From Escherichia phage T4, in sequence record OZ209057.1: a DNA stretch of 64,000 bases. One strand, written 5' to 3'. Every line of letters begins with the position of its first letter. Position 1 is the stretch's first letter. Positions 42,066 through 64,000 of this stretch are shown here, one piece after another. The notes below the pieces were generated by a model. That model was not told where the DNA came from. It saw only the letters and a program-made list of their open reading frames with translations, and ran no database searches. The position numbers and the translations under genes were made by a program.

Positions 42066-42687
42066 CTTTATATTTCCAAGTATATCCCTTATGAATAGAT
42101 TGAATTCCTTTGCAACATTTATAAACAGCAGAATGAAAAAATCCTGCATTTCTTATTTCAGTTGCTCCAGTTAGTTCTATTGTATTTCCGTCTGGTGAAT
42201 AGCCAATAACCGTTTTGGTGTTAAAGCGATTTCTAGAACTATTTTTGATATGCTCTTTATGATTAGTAGACAAAGTTCTTCCTGTTAGCCCATCAGATAT
42301 CCTTTTTCCAAAATCATCAGGAAGAGTTACTTTAGACCTAGCTATGCTCATTAGCTTCTTAGTTTTATCGCTTCTTTTTGCGCCACGCTGATTTTCAAAT
42401 TTCTTAGCTTTTGCATACGCGTATTGTGAAGAAGTAACTTTTCTATGCTTACTATTACTCATTATCCAATATGCATCATACATCTTTCCACCATATATTT
42501 TAGCCAATAAATGGTGAGCAGTATAGTGGGCCTTATAAGTTAAAAATACTAAGTTGTCTAAATCATCTGAACCACCCATACTTCTTGGAATTATATGATG
42601 AAGTTCATACCCGGCTTTAGTTTGACGGGGCTTAGATGGGTGTTCAGCAGAATTAACTAGATTTGAATAGATTCTGTCATAATTCAT
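42055..42687 (-). CDS. mobC: HNH homing endonuclease MobC
   Basis: 210 aa; ELHHIIPRSMGGSDDLDNLV. Confidence 0.8.
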   Translation of the reverse strand: MNYDRIYSNLVNSAEHPSKPRQTKAGYELHHIIPRSMGGSDDLDNLVFLTYKAHYTAHHLLAKIYGGKMYDAYWIMSNSKHRKVTSSQYAYAKAKKFENQRGAKRSDKTKKLMSIARSKVTLPDDFGKRISDGLTGRTLSTNHKEHIKNSSRNRFNTKTVIGYSPDGNTIELTGATEIRNAGFFHSAVYKCCKGIQSIHKGYTWKYKDEL

Positions 42688-43957
42688 TGGTGCTTAACCC
42701 TATGCATGATTTCTTTATTTTTACCGAGATTAAATCCGCGTTCGTTCGGATTTCCCAAATAACCACATGTTCTTCTTATGGTATTCATCTTTTTAGGATC
42801 AGTTTCTCCACAAATAGAACAAACAAATCCGTTTTCAGTAGGAGTCATTTCATGGGTACTTCCACATGTAAAACATTTATCTACTGGCATATTAACACCA
42901 AAATAATCTAAATGCTGTGCAGCATAATCCCACACGGCCTCAAGACCTTTTAAGTTATTTTTCATATCAGGAAGTTCAACATAAGAAATGTGACCACCTG
43001 TCGCAATGAAATGATATGGCGCTTCACGAGAAATCTTTTCAAACGGAGTAATATTTTCTTCTACTGAAACATGGAAACTGTTAGTGTACCAGCCTTTATC
43101 GGTAACATCTTTTACGCTTCCATATTTTTCTGTATCGAGTTTACAGAAGCGATAACACAGGTTTTCAGCAGGAGTCGAATATAAACTAAAAGCAAATCCG
43201 GTTCTTTCAGTCCACTGTTTAAGATGAGCATTCATTTTAGTTAAAATTTCTCGTCCAATATCACGACCGACAAGAATATTCAATTCGTGAATACCAATGT
43301 ATCCTAAAGACACTGAACTTCTACCGTTTTTAAATAACTCAATTATGTCGTCATCAGGTTTAAGACGAACCCCGAATGCACCTTCTTGGTAAAGAATAGG
43401 AGCAACAGTAGCTTTAACTCCTTTTAAGGAACTAATTCTACACATCAAAGCTTCAAAACATAAATCCATTCGTTCATTAAATAGCTCAACAAATTTCTGT
43501 TCATTGAACTGTGTTCCAATATAAGAATCTAACGCGATGCGAGGAAGATTCAGTGTTACAACACCAAGATTATTGCGTCCATCAAGAATTTCATTGCCAG
43601 TCGAATCTTTCCATACGCTCAAGAAACTACGGCAACCCATCGGAGAAACAGGAACAGATGAACCAGTGATAGCTTTATTGTTCTTAGCTGAAATAATATC
43701 AGGATACATCCTTTTGCTTGCGCACTCTAGAGCAAGCTGTTTAATATCATAGTTCGGATCGTCTTTATAAAGATTAACACCTTCTTCAACGAACATAACA
43801 AGCTTAGGGAAAATAGGAGTTATCCCATCACGACCAAGACCTTTAATACGATTTTTCAGAATTGCTTTCTGAATCATTCGTTCAGTCCAGTCAGTTCCCG
43901 TACCAAATGTAATTGTTACAAAAGGAGTCTGTCCGTTTGAACTGAATAACGTGTTCA
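42687..43957 (-). CDS. nrdD: anaerobic ribonucleotide reductase NrdD, exon 2
   Basis: C-terminal zinc ribbon CFTCGSTHE...CSICGETD and glycyl-radical motif RRTCGYLG; joins exon 1 in frame if a 1033-nt intron is removed. Confidence 0.8.
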
Positions 43958-44990
43958 CTTCATCAATGTGTTCAGTAGAGTTCGCTACTTCTCTACCCGT
44001 TTATATGAAACAATGTAATTTGGATAATTGTCATCTAAACACAAATCTTTAATACGACTTGGGTGGAGTTTTAAATCTTTAGCAGCATCCACAAATGATT
44101 TATAGATATTGTCATTTATTTTAACATATTCTGGGACGGGATGAATTGTTATTTTTATATCTATAACATTTGGATGATTACTAACCTGTTCTTCAGAGCA
44201 TTTAAGAAATTTTGCAGCTGATTTAAAACTTCTAAATTTATTTCCGGATTTTAAAGCTATAGAAACAGTCTTTTTAGCCGTTCTACTACCAATATTATTT
44301 TTAACATGAGCTTCACTTCTACTATTATTTTTATAATGCTCAATCAATTTCTCTCGTATCTTATCTTTATGTTTTAAAGATAAGATTTTACCTTTATGGG
44401 CATTACTAAGTTTTTGCTTATGTTCTTCTGAATCCGGATATTTGTTAAATTTATATCCACCTATAGATTTATTAAGAATAAATTCGTTATTAAAATATTT
44501 CCTAATAAGCATTTCTTCATGTTTAAGGGCCGATTCATAAGAATCAAAAACTTGAAGAATTATCCACTTAGCTTTATAATCTTTAAGCTTTTCTTTAACA
44601 AGCTTAGATGACGAATTGTATTCTTTCCAATTTGTATCTTTACCATATATAGTTTTGAATTTTTTAAAACCTATATAAAAAGACTTATCAGGAAATCTTA
44701 CCATATAGGTAAATGCTACAGAATTGGCAATTTTTAAGCTTTTTCTTAATTTCCATTTCATCGTTTCACCTCGTATTCATATTTATACGAGGATAAACAG
44801 CTGCATGTCACCATGCAGTTCAGACTATATCTTCAACTCTTAGAGTTGTCTGCCGTTTCGGGTCGCTTGACCCTACTCCCTTACATTCATCAGGGATAGT
44901 CGTTGGGCATTTACAGCTACTGCTGATTTAGCAACGGATTGTCTCAGTGAGAGTTTCCCGTTTTAGGCAGATTTTACATGAGCTTGACTT
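43958..44990 (-). mobile_element. group I intron in nrdD (1033 nt) carrying I-TevII
   Basis: exon 1 frame ends at U (44991), proposed intron ends with G (43958); 5' part has no long ORF, consistent with structured RNA; boundaries inferred, not proven. Confidence 0.7.
43985..44761 (-). CDS. I-TevII: intron-encoded homing endonuclease I-TevII (GIY-YIG)
   Basis: 258 aa ORF inside the intron; FTYMVRFPDKSFYIGF GIY-YIG-like motif. Confidence 0.85.
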   Translation of the reverse strand: MKWKLRKSLKIANSVAFTYMVRFPDKSFYIGFKKFKTIYGKDTNWKEYNSSSKLVKEKLKDYKAKWIILQVFDSYESALKHEEMLIRKYFNNEFILNKSIGGYKFNKYPDSEEHKQKLSNAHKGKILSLKHKDKIREKLIEHYKNNSRSEAHVKNNIGSRTAKKTVSIALKSGNKFRSFKSAAKFLKCSEEQVSNHPNVIDIKITIHPVPEYVKINDNIYKSFVDAAKDLKLHPSRIKDLCLDDNYPNYIVSYKRVEK

Positions 44991-60883: not shown

Positions 60884-61421
60884 TTACTATTTCCAAAAGT
60901 TTATTATTTTTAAGGTAATTAGCCTTTTCTAGGACTTCAGAAGCATATTTAGAACCTGCTTTAACATTCCATCCCGAATTATAAGAGGATATTGCTTTTC
61001 TTATATCGCCCTTATGTATATTTAACCAATAAGAAAGTTCAATGTACGCCCAGGAAGCTGAATTGGATCGTTTATTCAACATTCTTTTTATTTCAGCATC
61101 GGTCATATTATAACCAAGTTCCTTAACTCTTGCTCGCATAGTAGGCAAATAATTTTGGAACATTCCGTAGGCGTGATGCTTTGGTTTAGATTTTAAATTA
61201 ACTCCGCCAGAGCTTTCTTGCCATAAAATGGCAGCCATTATATGACCTAATCCGCTCTTGTGGATATTTTTGTGTGTTTTATATTTTCCATCCTTAGAAA
61301 ATTGTTCCCCGAATTGATACGCGTAACGCATGTTATCGAGTTGGACATTACTGAAAGTATGCTCGGAGCTATGTGCCATCATTGAAATGGCCAATAGACC
61401 AGCGAGTAGTGCTTTTCTCAT
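60876..61421 (-). CDS. periplasmic lytic transglycosylase-like protein (vs.1 position)
   Basis: 181 aa; signal peptide; ILWQESSGG ... YGMFQ SLT-domain motifs. Confidence 0.65.
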   Translation of the reverse strand: MRKALLAGLLAISMMAHSSEHTFSNVQLDNMRYAYQFGEQFSKDGKYKTHKNIHKSGLGHIMAAILWQESSGGVNLKSKPKHHAYGMFQNYLPTMRARVKELGYNMTDAEIKRMLNKRSNSASWAYIELSYWLNIHKGDIRKAISSYNSGWNVKAGSKYASEVLEKANYLKNNKLLEIVND

Positions 61422-61428
61422 GCTTACC

Positions 61429-61890
61429 TCATTGAGTTTTAATTACTGCTTTAGAAGCCTTTCCTGGTAAACGACGACTGTTGATAATTGCCATCCTACA
61501 TTGAAGTGACGGGTCTTTGAACTTCTCGTTAGGTTTACAAACTGTAAATCCAAGCCAAAGATTTCCATCTGTGATTTCTAAACGTCCAGGACGATATTCA
61601 ACCCCATCAATAAAATCCTCGTCAATGTCAGGACGCGGAGGCATACTCAGGAATTCATTAACTTCTAAAACATGGTCTTTTATTTTATGGAATAATTCAA
61701 AAACGTATGTCTCATCAATCTCCCGTTGAATTGCGCGATCAAGAAGATGTTGAGAATATTTTAGATGAAACGATGAGACTCCTGCTGCTTTTGATGCCTC
61801 ACGAATCTCATTGTTAATTTGACGAAACTCCGACTCAAAGTGACGACGAAGCTTATTTCGACGGATAAAAACTTCTGTATTGATAGTCAT
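61429..61890 (-). CDS. regB: RegB site-specific endoribonuclease
   Basis: 153 aa; size and synteny match T4 RegB. Confidence 0.8.
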   Translation of the reverse strand: MTINTEVFIRRNKLRRHFESEFRQINNEIREASKAAGVSSFHLKYSQHLLDRAIQREIDETYVFELFHKIKDHVLEVNEFLSMPPRPDIDEDFIDGVEYRPGRLEITDGNLWLGFTVCKPNEKFKDPSLQCRMAIINSRRLPGKASKAVIKTQ

Positions 61891-61926
61891 GTTATTCTCC
61901 TCTTAACTGATAGAAAAATTATACCA

Positions 61927-61956
61927 CAGTCAAGAGGAAAAGTAAACAGTTATTCT
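61927..61956 (-). promoter_or_regulatory. early-type promoter GTTTAC-N18-TATAAT upstream of regB
   Basis: plus strand attata 61927..61932, gtaaac 61951..61956. Confidence 0.6.
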
Positions 61957-62270
61957 TTAAATCTAATCAATTTATTCATAGACTTTGAAACTTCGGCACG
62001 AACCTCATGTAGATTTTTGAGCTGTTCAAGACGCTGCGTATAGTAAGCAATTTCATCTTCTTCGAGACAGTCCTGCGAATCTTCTTTAAGATAACGTGCA
62101 TAGTCCTGGAAAGCGTTACGGACTACTTCCTGGAAGTCATCAAGACTTTGAATTTTCTTAGGAGCAACAGATACACGACGAGGGGCAGTATAATACTCAT
62201 AACCAAACCCTGCGCTTAATTGAGCCATTAGTATTTTTCCTCTGGTTGGAACACTGCACGACAAGCCCAC
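61950..62270 (-). CDS. hypothetical protein (vs.3 position)
   Basis: 106 aa ORF. Confidence 0.5.
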
Positions 62271-62530
62271 ATACTGGCTTCTTTGAGTTTCGTTTTAGCA
62301 ATAGTTAACTGATCGAGACTTTCAGCATAATTCTTCGCGAATTCACAGTCTTCGCAATTATCTAGTGCTTCCCAGAATTCATCATATAAAGCATCAAAGA
62401 TAAGTCCTAAACGAACTTCAGCGTCTTTAATAGCATTTACTTTACCGATTTTCTCTTCAGTATGTGGTTTATAACCCTTAATATCTTCAATCATATTTGA
62501 CTTCCTCACCAGTACATAAATCGTATTCAA
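62228..62530 (-). CDS. acb2: vs.4-position protein; I recall T4 Vs.4 being Acb2, a cyclic-oligonucleotide sponge that counters CBASS
   Basis: about 90-100 aa ORF at the vs.4 position counted from regB; identity rests on synteny and recollection. Confidence 0.5.
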
Positions 62531-62708
62531 CTAAACGAATAGGTTCATGAATGCCATAGCCTTGAACAGAAATTTCTGTCGTAGGATAAATTCCATCAAT
62601 ATCACCCATATTCCACGCTTCATTAAATTGCTGTTCGCCTGAGTTACTAAACCACTCGGCGAAAGCATTTAGCACATCTTCAGAACCTTCAATAATTATC
62701 TTTGCCAT
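62487..62708 (-). CDS. hypothetical small protein (vs.5 position)
   Basis: 73 aa ORF. Confidence 0.5.
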   Translation of the reverse strand: MAKIIIEGSEDVLNAFAEWFSNSGEQQFNEAWNMGDIDGIYPTTEISVQGYGIHEPIRLVEYDLCTGEEVKYD

Positions 62709-63070
62709 TACAAACTTTCAGTAAAGGTACGAGCGATAACGTCGCGCTGCTGTTCCGGAGTCAGAGAGTTAAAGCGAACTGCATAACCGGATACACGGAT
62801 GGTCAGCTGCGGATATTTTTCCGGATGCTTAACTGCATCTTCCAGAGTTTCACGACGCAGAACGTTAACGTTCAGGTGTTGACCACCTTCAATTTTAACT
62901 GTAGGTTGTGGCTCAATTTCAATTTCACGGGCATGCAAACCATAGAAAATTTCTGGGTCTACAAAAGAGTCCTCTTTAAAGGTTTTAGAGACAATAATTC
63001 GTGCTTGAATACCATCTTCAAAATAAATAGTACCTTTATGTGTGCCTTCAAGAATTTGATATGCTTTCAT
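62708..63070 (-). CDS. autonomous glycyl-radical domain protein (GrcA/YfiD-like 'spare part' for pyruvate formate-lyase), vs.6 position
   Basis: 120 aa; C-terminal [25 protein letters not shown] glycyl-radical motif. Confidence 0.75.
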
Positions 63071-63077
63071 ATAAACC

Positions 63078-63458
63078 TCAATTAGAAAATAAATTTATCC
63101 AAGATTGTTCTTTAATTAAAAATGGCTCAGAATCATATGCCATTAAACTTTGCGTAATTAATCCTTTAAAAGGTCCATCAATAAATTCCATGGTAAAATA
63201 TGGAATTTTATTCATTAGCCGTGCATTAGGAGCAGTGCACAAAACTCTGCATCCTTTGAATACGCCTTTTTGTAATTTGTATTGCTTGGGATAAAATTCG
63301 CTCAAAATGTTATTTTTTGCCAAAATTTCAAAATGATTCACCAATTTATTTTTAATAGTTTTTGGCGAAAAATAAAGATATTCGAAAAGCTGAGTGTCTG
63401 TCATCATTGCATTCCGATTACGAAAAACTGTGGACGAGTAATACCACCAATGCAACAT
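63078..63458 (-). CDS. hypothetical protein (vs.7 position)
   Basis: 126 aa ORF. Confidence 0.5.
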
Positions 63459-63979
63459 TTACTATTACAGCAGTAGTGTACGGTGTCAATATGGACACTA
63501 TAAATCTTATCCATATCAGGAGATTTGACAGGCTCATCAATTATATACAAAATTCGCGAAAGCTTTAAACCTCTGAACTTGCTTCCTTTATTACCAATAA
63601 AACTGCGTACAGAATCAGTAAATAAACGAAAACGTATATCATCATTAGAATAACGCGAAAATTCCTTTTTGATGTTATTTGCAGAAATTTTAGCATAAGC
63701 TGAAGTATTAGAAAGAACAATAACTGTTCCGCCATCATACAACCAATTAGCAGCAAAGTTAGTCACAGCAATTGATTTACCGGATTGACGTCCACCATCT
63801 AGTCGAAGTGTACAATACTGTTTAAGTAAGTCTTCAAATGGCGGGATATATTCGTTTTTACAAATTTCTTCTACTCTAGCATCAGAATGGTGTGTAAAAG
63901 CATTCATCAGGGATAGATAAGGACCAGTTAAAAATGTTCTCATTTCTTCTCTATAAGTTTGGGCCATTCCGTGGCGCAT
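63404..63979 (-). CDS. P-loop-containing hypothetical protein (vs.8 position)
   Basis: 191 aa; DGGRQSGKS Walker-A-like motif. Confidence 0.5.
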   Translation of the reverse strand: MRHGMAQTYREEMRTFLTGPYLSLMNAFTHHSDARVEEICKNEYIPPFEDLLKQYCTLRLDGGRQSGKSIAVTNFAANWLYDGGTVIVLSNTSAYAKISANNIKKEFSRYSNDDIRFRLFTDSVRSFIGNKGSKFRGLKLSRILYIIDEPVKSPDMDKIYSVHIDTVHYCCNSKCCIGGITRPQFFVIGMQ

Positions 63980-64000
63980 GAATTGTCCATTTCTGTATTT

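Follow-up and report, generated by a model that had tools for sequence, protein, structure and literature searches.

Introduction

Does the DNA between positions 61950 and 63070 of this phage T4 sequence encode a sponge for a host immune signal beside a spare part for a host enzyme, and where did the coding sequence of that spare part come from? An earlier note had proposed, from the letters of the sequence, a possible Acb2 anti-CBASS protein and a glycyl-radical protein for this interval. Here we describe the gene content of the locus, weigh what its two recognisable products do, and give an extended account of the 3' half of the glycyl-radical gene, which is nearly identical to the chromosomal grcA gene of Escherichia coli. 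The window is the whole 64-kb stretch of DNA that was analysed.

Gene content of the locus

Positions 61400-63500 of the window were compared with 50,697 phage records by megablast and are 100% identical over their full length to several phage T4 genomes, including OZ209023, HM137666, KJ477684 and MT984581. Identity to the reference NC_000866/AF158101 is 99.8%. The reference T4 annotation fits the minus-strand open reading frames one-to-one, from regB through vs.7 and then vs.8; vs.7 lies between vs.6 and vs.8, and vs.8 is truncated by the end of the window. The interval 61950-63070 is the vs.3-vs.4-vs.5-vs.6 block of phage T4 on the minus strand. It had been described as two genes, and vs.4 and vs.6 are indeed there, together with vs.3 and vs.5. 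Counting from regB had led to the right place, as the second ORF is vs.4 in the reference annotation and the 120-aa glycyl-radical ORF two ORFs further on is vs.6. The genes are as follows.

61429-61890, minus strand: regB, from the ORF and the reference annotation
61950-62228, minus strand: vs.3, 92 aa, function unknown, PHROG 2037, last gene of the unit
62228-62494, minus strand: vs.4 = acb2, 88-aa cyclic-dinucleotide sponge (anti-CBASS protein 2)
62487-62708, minus strand: vs.5, 73 aa, function unknown, full-length match to PHROG 1986
62708-63070, minus strand: vs.6 (Y06I), 120-aa autonomous glycyl-radical "spare part" of the GrcA/YfiD type

Stop and start codons overlap at all three junctions: the start of vs.5 overlaps the stop of vs.6 (TAATG), the end of vs.5 and the start of vs.4 share 8 nt, and vs.4 overlaps vs.3. 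The ATG of vs.4 is preceded by a GAGGA Shine-Dalgarno sequence and opens a protein of 88 aa, slightly below the 90-100 aa that had been estimated; a mechanical ORF counted from an upstream TTG reaches 100 aa. No Pfam or NCBIfam family matched vs.3. In NC_000866 the vs.5 product has 58 aa because a G at window position 62658 is absent there.

Transcription of the vs genes

The vs.3, vs.4 and vs.6 genes are all classed as "early-RNA_middle-Protein" by time-resolved omics (PMC9697503 supplement), and X04567, the original record of the region, is titled "58.3 to 65.5 kb early region". Two elements are candidate limits of the unit.

63540..63569, minus strand: promoter-like site TTTAAA-18-TATAAT inside vs.8, candidate start of a vs.7-to-vs.3 unit
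61891..61949, minus strand: hairpin between vs.3 and regB, bounding the vs unit downstream

At the same place inside vs.8, X04567 annotates a potential promoter for ORF 63.4, and it lists the vs.3-regB element as inverted repeat D/D', a potential terminator. The RNA fold of this intergenic segment has an energy of -23.1 kcal/mol (z = -4.75) and pairs the Shine-Dalgarno sequence of regB (GAGGAG); the hairpin also encloses a promoter-like site, TTTACT-17-TATAAT with TG, at 61946..61918. No minus-strand terminator was found within the vs.3-vs.6 block. The consensus promoter scan returned 8 sites where 9.1 would be expected, so that overall it shows no excess over chance, and the limits of the transcription unit therefore rest on the old annotation and on gene packing. 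To speak of "one early operon", as the earlier note did, is reasonable for the vs genes: early RNA for vs.3, vs.4 and vs.6 and the overlapping codons agree with it, and from these we infer co-transcription as a single unit.

The vs.4 product is Acb2

The vs.4 product is simply Acb2, which confirms the tentative assignment of the earlier note. All 88 of its 88 residues agree with the protein crystallised in PDB 7UQ2 under the name "Vs.4" (Jenson et al. 2023, PMC10097602), which is the same protein from the same gene position of the same phage, with zero differences. Pfam PF24729 (Acb2_Tad1_hairpin) matched over the entire model, with an E-value of 7.1e-20 and a score of 71.4 bits that lies far over the cut-off of 27. 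The gene belongs to PHROG 717, the family from which Jenson et al. collected homologues. The protein carries Y8, H11, T12, K23, L29, F33, A66, A73, S74, A77, R79 and F82, all of them residues picked out by structure or mutation in that study and together the complete set (PMC10097602). One of them is the base-stacking residue of the cGAMP pocket, Tyr8 (PMC10097602), the position of which was computed from the ORF.

62471..62473, minus strand: Tyr8 codon of acb2

In phage T2, a 2-nt deletion falls exactly at this codon.

When the PDB was searched with Vs.4 by phmmer, the default threshold returned nothing beyond 7UQ2. At a relaxed threshold, the "p26" chains 8H2J, 8H2X and 8H39 and those of the 8IXZ-8J8O series aligned over the full length with E of about 0.03. 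In this weak alignment Y8 and K23 of T4 correspond to Y11 and K26 of the PaMx33 Acb2, which are described as essential, highly conserved and cyclic-dinucleotide-binding (PMC10312549). As the PaMx33 structures match only at that level, membership in the Acb2 family rests on Pfam and the conserved residues. The PaMx33 protein (8H2J, 8IXZ series) shares Pfam PF24729 and the hexameric sponge mechanism with T4 Vs.4, but the two are only about 24% identical, and F82 of T4 aligns with Ala in PaMx33.

The function of the protein has been published. For 3',3'-cGAMP, T4 Vs.4 has a Kd of about 30 nM; it assembles into a hexamer that takes up three cGAMP molecules, with analytical ultracentrifugation data, and it inhibits activation of CapV (PMC10097602); the hexamer assembly is taken here from the literature on 7UQ2, and what we computed is sequence identity alone. 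On Cap2-mutant CBASS cells, the titre of a vs.4 knockout was about 50-fold below that of the wild type (PMC10097602). A second, independent measurement gave a Kd of about 84 nM for T4 Acb2 and cGAMP, and cA3 was not bound by T4 Acb2 in ITC and native gels (PMC10312549). The second pocket, for cyclic trinucleotides, is a feature of the PaMx33 and JBD67 Acb2 proteins (PMC10312549), and its lack in the T4 protein is variation within the family, not exclusion from Acb2. The gene, written "acb2/vs.4", was found to be necessary and sufficient for triggering the Panoptes guard system (PMC12657218).

The vs.6 product is a glycyl-radical spare part

The vs.6 product matched Pfam PF01228 (Gly_radical) with an E-value of 2.8e-18 and 66.8 bits (cut-off 22.2) and E. 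coli GrcA (PDB 6OWR) at 8.6e-42. By BLASTP, 74 of 100 residues are identical to E. coli GrcA, including all of the final 61, so the assignment to the GrcA/YfiD type in the earlier note was right. The C-terminal 63 residues of this stand-alone protein (58-120) are the only ones that align to PflB, at residues 697-759 (E = 5e-26). The predicted radical glycine was placed by motif position and alignments.

62786..62788, minus strand: Gly95 codon of vs.6, in the motif RVSGYAVRF

Gly95 is equivalent to G102 of GrcA and G734 of PflB, and the loop is identical in GrcA 99-107 and PflB 731-739; the radical residue, on the conserved context of which the earlier assignment depended, is thus present. The C-terminus had been read as ending in EQQRDV, which is mistaken, as the sequence continues with IARTFTESL.

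By far the best NCBIfam model for Vs.6 is TIGR04365 (spare_glycyl), but the score of 153.3 bits is under the curated equivalog cut-off for bacterial GrcA, which is 170; the shortfall is due to the divergent, phage-specific N-terminal 58 residues. RefSeq names the product GrcA despite this sub-threshold score. E. coli GrcA (YfiD) is likewise a stand-alone protein of about 14 kDa, with the radical loop in the identical last 61 residues. The N-terminal 58 residues of Vs.6, in contrast, have only about 50% DNA identity and weak protein similarity to those of GrcA and are 7 residues shorter, and Vs.6 is made from a phage early transcript, whereas GrcA is under host regulation. In the C-terminal domain of PflB (PDB 1H16 and others) the radical glycine sits in the same loop, but Vs.6 is without the 10-stranded barrel and the catalytic Cys418/Cys419 of PflB, and can therefore act solely by complementing cleaved PFL.

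Such complementation, which the earlier note had suggested for oxygen-damaged pyruvate formate-lyase, was already reported. According to the summary in PMC8683613, Wagner et al. 2001 (PMID 11444864) found that Y06I is activated by PFL activase and reconstitutes O2-cleaved PFL, and for GrcA, too, activation by PFL-AE and rescue of O2-cleaved PFL are reported there. The rescue of cleaved PFL by Y06I/YfiD via PFL-AE is likewise summarised in PMC13450708. No in-vivo phenotype of a T4 vs.6 mutant was found in the searchable literature, and for this reason an in-vivo advantage from Vs.6 is one that we infer for the phage.

Proposed mechanism and alternatives

The best explanation of the locus, to which we give a probability of about 96%, is that an early minus-strand vs.3-vs.6 block supplies both an Acb2 sponge and a Vs.6 spare part for PFL. 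Acb2 is a hexamer of 88-aa subunits. Its three pockets lie at contacts between pairs of subunits, and there 3',3'-cGAMP and other cyclic dinucleotides are held by stacking of Tyr8 and Phe82 on their bases. The sponge soaks up the signal of the host's cGAS-like enzyme, so that the CBASS effector is kept from killing the cell before phage replication, and the same sequestration also trips the Panoptes guard system. The vs.6 gene encodes a 14-kDa protein that copies the C-terminal glycyl-radical domain of host PFL, and on Gly95 of this copy host PflA would install the radical. Docking of this copy onto PFL cleaved by oxygen at Gly734 would restore activity, and in a microaerobic gut host Vs.6 would presumably let fermentation continue to yield acetyl-CoA, ATP and formate while the phage infects.

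Two alternatives give Vs.6 another target or an opposite effect. It might be a spare part for the phage's own anaerobic ribonucleotide reductase, NrdD, and not for host PFL; the T4 gene lies in the window.

42687-44000: T4 nrdD, Pfam NRDD match of 7.6e-123

A role in nucleotide metabolism was proposed by Nolan et al. 2006 from the Gly_radical match (PMC1524935), and in Aeromonas phage PX29 the vs.6 homologue is found within the order nrdD-nrdG-vs.6-nrdC-nrdH. The radical loop of T4 NrdD, however, reads RRTCGYLGNP against RVSGYAVRF in Vs.6, a BLASTP comparison of the two proteins was not significant (E = 1.7), and the radical domain of Vs.6 is 100% identical to that of GrcA and close to that of PflB. 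With a different loop, no significant similarity, and rescue of PFL by Y06I demonstrated biochemically according to PMC8683613, this target was rejected as extremely improbable. We find it just as hard to credit that Vs.6 is a decoy which titrates host PflA or blocks PFL and so shuts down host fermentation. A free radical domain identical to that of the host could compete for the activase, and the phage-specific N-terminal half might alter behaviour after docking; yet PFL reconstitution by Y06I in vitro is reported (PMC8683613), and the exact agreement of the docking and radical domain with the host sequence is what a working part of the host enzyme would be expected to show.

A further proposal would make acb2 and vs.6 more than neighbours, a single functional module in which immune evasion is coupled to metabolic repair. 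In Jiaodavirus, Karamvirus and Slopekvirus the gene directly downstream of vs.6 is indeed an Acb2-family ORF, and in Tequatrovirus and Mosigvirus such an ORF is one gene away, but inherited gene order accounts for this adjacency. T5-like and Aeromonas phages, moreover, have a GrcA homologue without an adjacent Acb2, Acb2 occurs in other contexts in PaMx33-type phages (PMC10312549), and no biochemical link between the two is known, which leaves such a coupling very unlikely.

A host-identical tract in vs.6

Comparison with 5,426 complete E. coli genomes by megablast returned a single match for the whole window, and this match is in vs.6.

62715-62892, minus strand: 178-nt tract of vs.6 (gene nt 179-356), 100% DNA identity to a common E. 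coli grcA haplotype

Over its 3' 185 nt, vs.6 is 98.9% identical to grcA in all 5,426 genomes, and the 5' half has no DNA match in any of them. In a pairwise alignment of vs.6 and grcA, identity upstream of the 178-nt block is only about 50%; at the other end the last two codons differ synonymously, and past the stop codon there is no similarity. The tract also has the higher GC content, 0.47, compared with 0.34 for the 5' half.

Homologues of Vs.6 were found in 1,588 phage records. Only in Tequatrovirus and Mosigvirus infecting E. coli do the tracts fall as close as 2-13 differences (of 186) to E. coli grcA. The tracts of Jiaodavirus, Karamvirus, Slopekvirus and Krischvirus, and likewise those of T5-like, Aeromonas and jumbo phages, show 16-56 differences from each of 82 sampled host genes. 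For the Klebsiella and Enterobacter T4-like phages the range is 20-37 differences, in a host sample without K. pneumoniae and K. oxytoca. Since the tracts of these distant phages diverge while their proteins remain nearly the same, synonymous identity is not forced by protein constraint. Full-text searches of the searchable literature returned no mention of the host-identical tract; older T4 papers may have noted the identity with yfiD at the protein or DNA level.

Probable repeated transfer from host to phage

How the tract came to be identical to the host gene was addressed by base-by-base inspection of about 18 phage genes; a scan of IMG/VR contributed just six close T-even relatives and hence little power. 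T4 and the Mosigvirus RPN187 differ at about 33% of positions in the flanking vs.7, vs.5 and vs.4 and at 11% in the 5' half of vs.6, but their tracts are both identical at 175 of 175 nt to one E. coli haplotype (SK1144 type). For Shigella phage Shfl2 the agreement is again exact, at 175 of 175 nt, but with another extant E. coli haplotype (AR_0077/DG341 type, with A at site 27). That different T-even phages match different grcA haplotypes implies repeated gene conversion from host to phage.

The E. coli tract haplotypes form a graded series, differing at four synonymous sites (27, 42, 108 and 159), and the Tequatroviruses are polymorphic for the same bases at those sites. Among them the combinations TTC, ATC, AAC, ATT and AAT occur at sites 27/108/159, and for sites 108 and 159 all four combinations are present. 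The chance that all three sites distinguishing alleles A and B would be among the seven differences between IME537 and T4, with matching bases, is 1e-6 to 3e-5 by a naive calculation, a figure that heterogeneous site mutability would raise. The right-hand end of the host-like block varies, with phage-type bases beginning at site 171 in GiZh, 174 in T2 and 180 in T4, and OES_C-2 and RPN187 are host-like at sites 180/181. The direction of transfer is from host to phage, because codon usage in the tract is that of the host, the differences between host alleles extend outside the tract, and Salmonella and other genera also have 27A and 159T, the states of allele B.

A further argument, from an apparently decoupled divergence in Killian and IME537 (2-3 differences in the 5' half against 7-10 in the tract), was withdrawn. 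Background divergence of these phages from T4 in vs.7, vs.5 and vs.4 is 4-7%, by which measure the tract is ordinary and the 5' half unusually conserved. The case for repeated transfer accordingly rests on exact matches to different host haplotypes. It is unlikely that host reads have contaminated the consensus sequences of the phages; for T4, the tract can be seen as early as X04567, a Sanger record of 1986.

It could be objected that vs.6 was captured once, long ago, and that strong purifying selection keeps its DNA identical to grcA. All T-even phages do share the same left boundary (grcA nt 199/200), and the protein segment encoded by the tract is invariant, hence under strong constraint. 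Selection on the protein, however, leaves synonymous sites unfixed: Klebsiella and Enterobacter T4-like phages with nearly the same protein differ at about 30 of 62 codons. Nor does a single capture fit a single E. coli haplotype shared by T4 and RPN187 across such diverged flanks, an exact match of Shfl2 to another haplotype, or four synonymous sites polymorphic for the same bases in E. coli and in the phages. We regard a single capture as unlikely. Probably, the 3' half of vs.6 in the T-even phages of E. coli is a sink for host DNA that has been overwritten repeatedly in gene conversion events, each with the infected strain's grcA allele as donor.

Conclusions

The identifications of Acb2 and Vs.6 are correct but already known, and both proteins are experimentally characterised. 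With binding, structure and rescue experiments published, the "candidate" status given to them in the earlier note and the checks it proposed are out of date, although both genes were recognisable to its reader from the raw sequence. The host-derived and apparently recurrently refreshed 3' half of vs.6 is the fresh observation, of moderate interest. The identity of the tract to the host gene suggests selection for exact mimicry of the radical domain of host PFL. If repeated transfer is true, host and phage have synonymous haplotypes in common even though the phage is strictly lytic and its DNA modified, its PFL spare part remains an exact match to the host enzyme, and the locus would be a natural, measurable case of ongoing recombination from the chromosome to a virulent phage. 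A host-identical tract in which different phages match different host alleles may be of modest value as a natural marker for the frequency of recombination between virulent T-even phages and the host chromosome.

Host-identical tract in vs.6

The 3' part of vs.6, the gene for the 120-aa GrcA-type glycyl-radical protein, contains a tract of 178 nt (62715-62892, minus strand) whose DNA is 100% identical to a common grcA haplotype of Escherichia coli. A comparison of the 64-kb window with 5,426 E. coli genomes returned this tract as the sole match, and no DNA similarity to grcA was found in the 5' half of the gene. The same stretch of vs.6 homologues in T-even phages was compared with E. coli grcA. 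The tracts of T4, OES_C-2 and Mosigvirus RPN187 are identical to the E. coli SK1144-type haplotype, whereas that of Shfl2 is identical to the E. coli AR_0077-type haplotype. Four synonymous polymorphisms of E. coli grcA are also variable in the phage tracts, and the right-hand end of the host-like tract, toward the vs.6 stop codon, lies at different points in different phages. The matches to different host haplotypes, the common polymorphisms and the varying end points together imply repeated host-to-phage gene conversion into vs.6.

The phage-specific 5' half of vs.6 (62894-63070) is unusually conserved relative to the adjoining genes. Among Tequatroviruses it has 0-9 differences per 177 nt, while the adjoining genes of the same phages are 4-7% different; between Tequatrovirus and Mosigvirus it is 11% divergent, compared with approximately 33% for the adjoining genes.

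Comparison with the T4 reference genome

The window is distinguished from the T4 reference NC_000866 by four positions (62520-62521, 62658 and 62853). An additional G at 62658 extends vs.5 to 73 aa, compared with 58 aa in the NC_000866 annotation, and the 73-aa product matches PHROG 1986 over its full length. The C at 62853 makes residue 73 of Vs.6 an Arg, which E. coli GrcA also has; NC_000866 encodes His instead. At the deviating positions every re-sequenced T4 genome carries the same bases as the window; NC_000866 is therefore probably in error there.

Other features of the region

Two further features of the window were recorded:

61885-61955, minus strand: strong RNA hairpin in the vs.3-regB intergenic region (fold -23.1 kcal/mol, z = -4.75)
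63404-64000, minus strand: vs.8, incomplete at the window end, with its true start outside the window

The predicted hairpin pairs the regB Shine-Dalgarno sequence (GAGGAG) and has within it a good promoter-like site, TTTACT-17-TATAAT with a TG, an arrangement in which the translatability of regB would differ between read-through and promoter-proximal transcripts. Vs.8 has a Walker-A-like motif (GGRQSGKS) and weak PHROG matches to a terminase-large-subunit family (1.4e-5), which suggest a P-loop NTPase.

acb2 and its pairing with vs.6

In phage T2 (PV648364, locus L095, approximately 899-925), acb2, the cyclic-dinucleotide sponge gene, has lost 2 nt exactly at the codon for Tyr8 (GGTTATAAA to GGATAAA), so that the normal frame reads MIEDIKG and then stops. 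This fits a remark in the Panoptes paper (PMC12657218) that T2 has a disrupting acb2 mutation.

In Jiaodavirus, Karamvirus and Slopekvirus an Acb2-family ORF (Pfam 3e-17 to 6e-16) begins at the vs.6 stop codon, vs.5 being absent between the two genes. Coordinates are internal to each extracted locus:

L084, 763-1044: Acb2-family ORF
L085, 763-1044: Acb2-family ORF
L086, 763-1032: Acb2-family ORF
L099, 685-966: Acb2-family ORF

The pair of glycyl-radical and sponge genes is kept in at least five Straboviridae genera.

GrcA-like genes in more distant phages

In Aeromonas phage PX29 (L090, 1-2447) the vs.6 homologue lies within an anaerobic nucleotide-reduction cluster, nrdD-nrdG-vs.6-nrdC-nrdH, where it overlaps the end of nrdG; despite this location its radical loop is of the PFL type. 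GrcA-like genes are also present in T5-like Demerecviridae and in Biquartavirus, adjoining tRNA genes:

L088, 139-769: GrcA-like gene region of HildyBeyeler (T5-like)
L089, 201-760: GrcA-like gene region of Aeromonas phage Riv-10

The tracts of these T5-like Demerecviridae and Biquartavirus genes have approximately 47-50 differences from every sampled host grcA, and on this sequence distance the genes look like old acquisitions.
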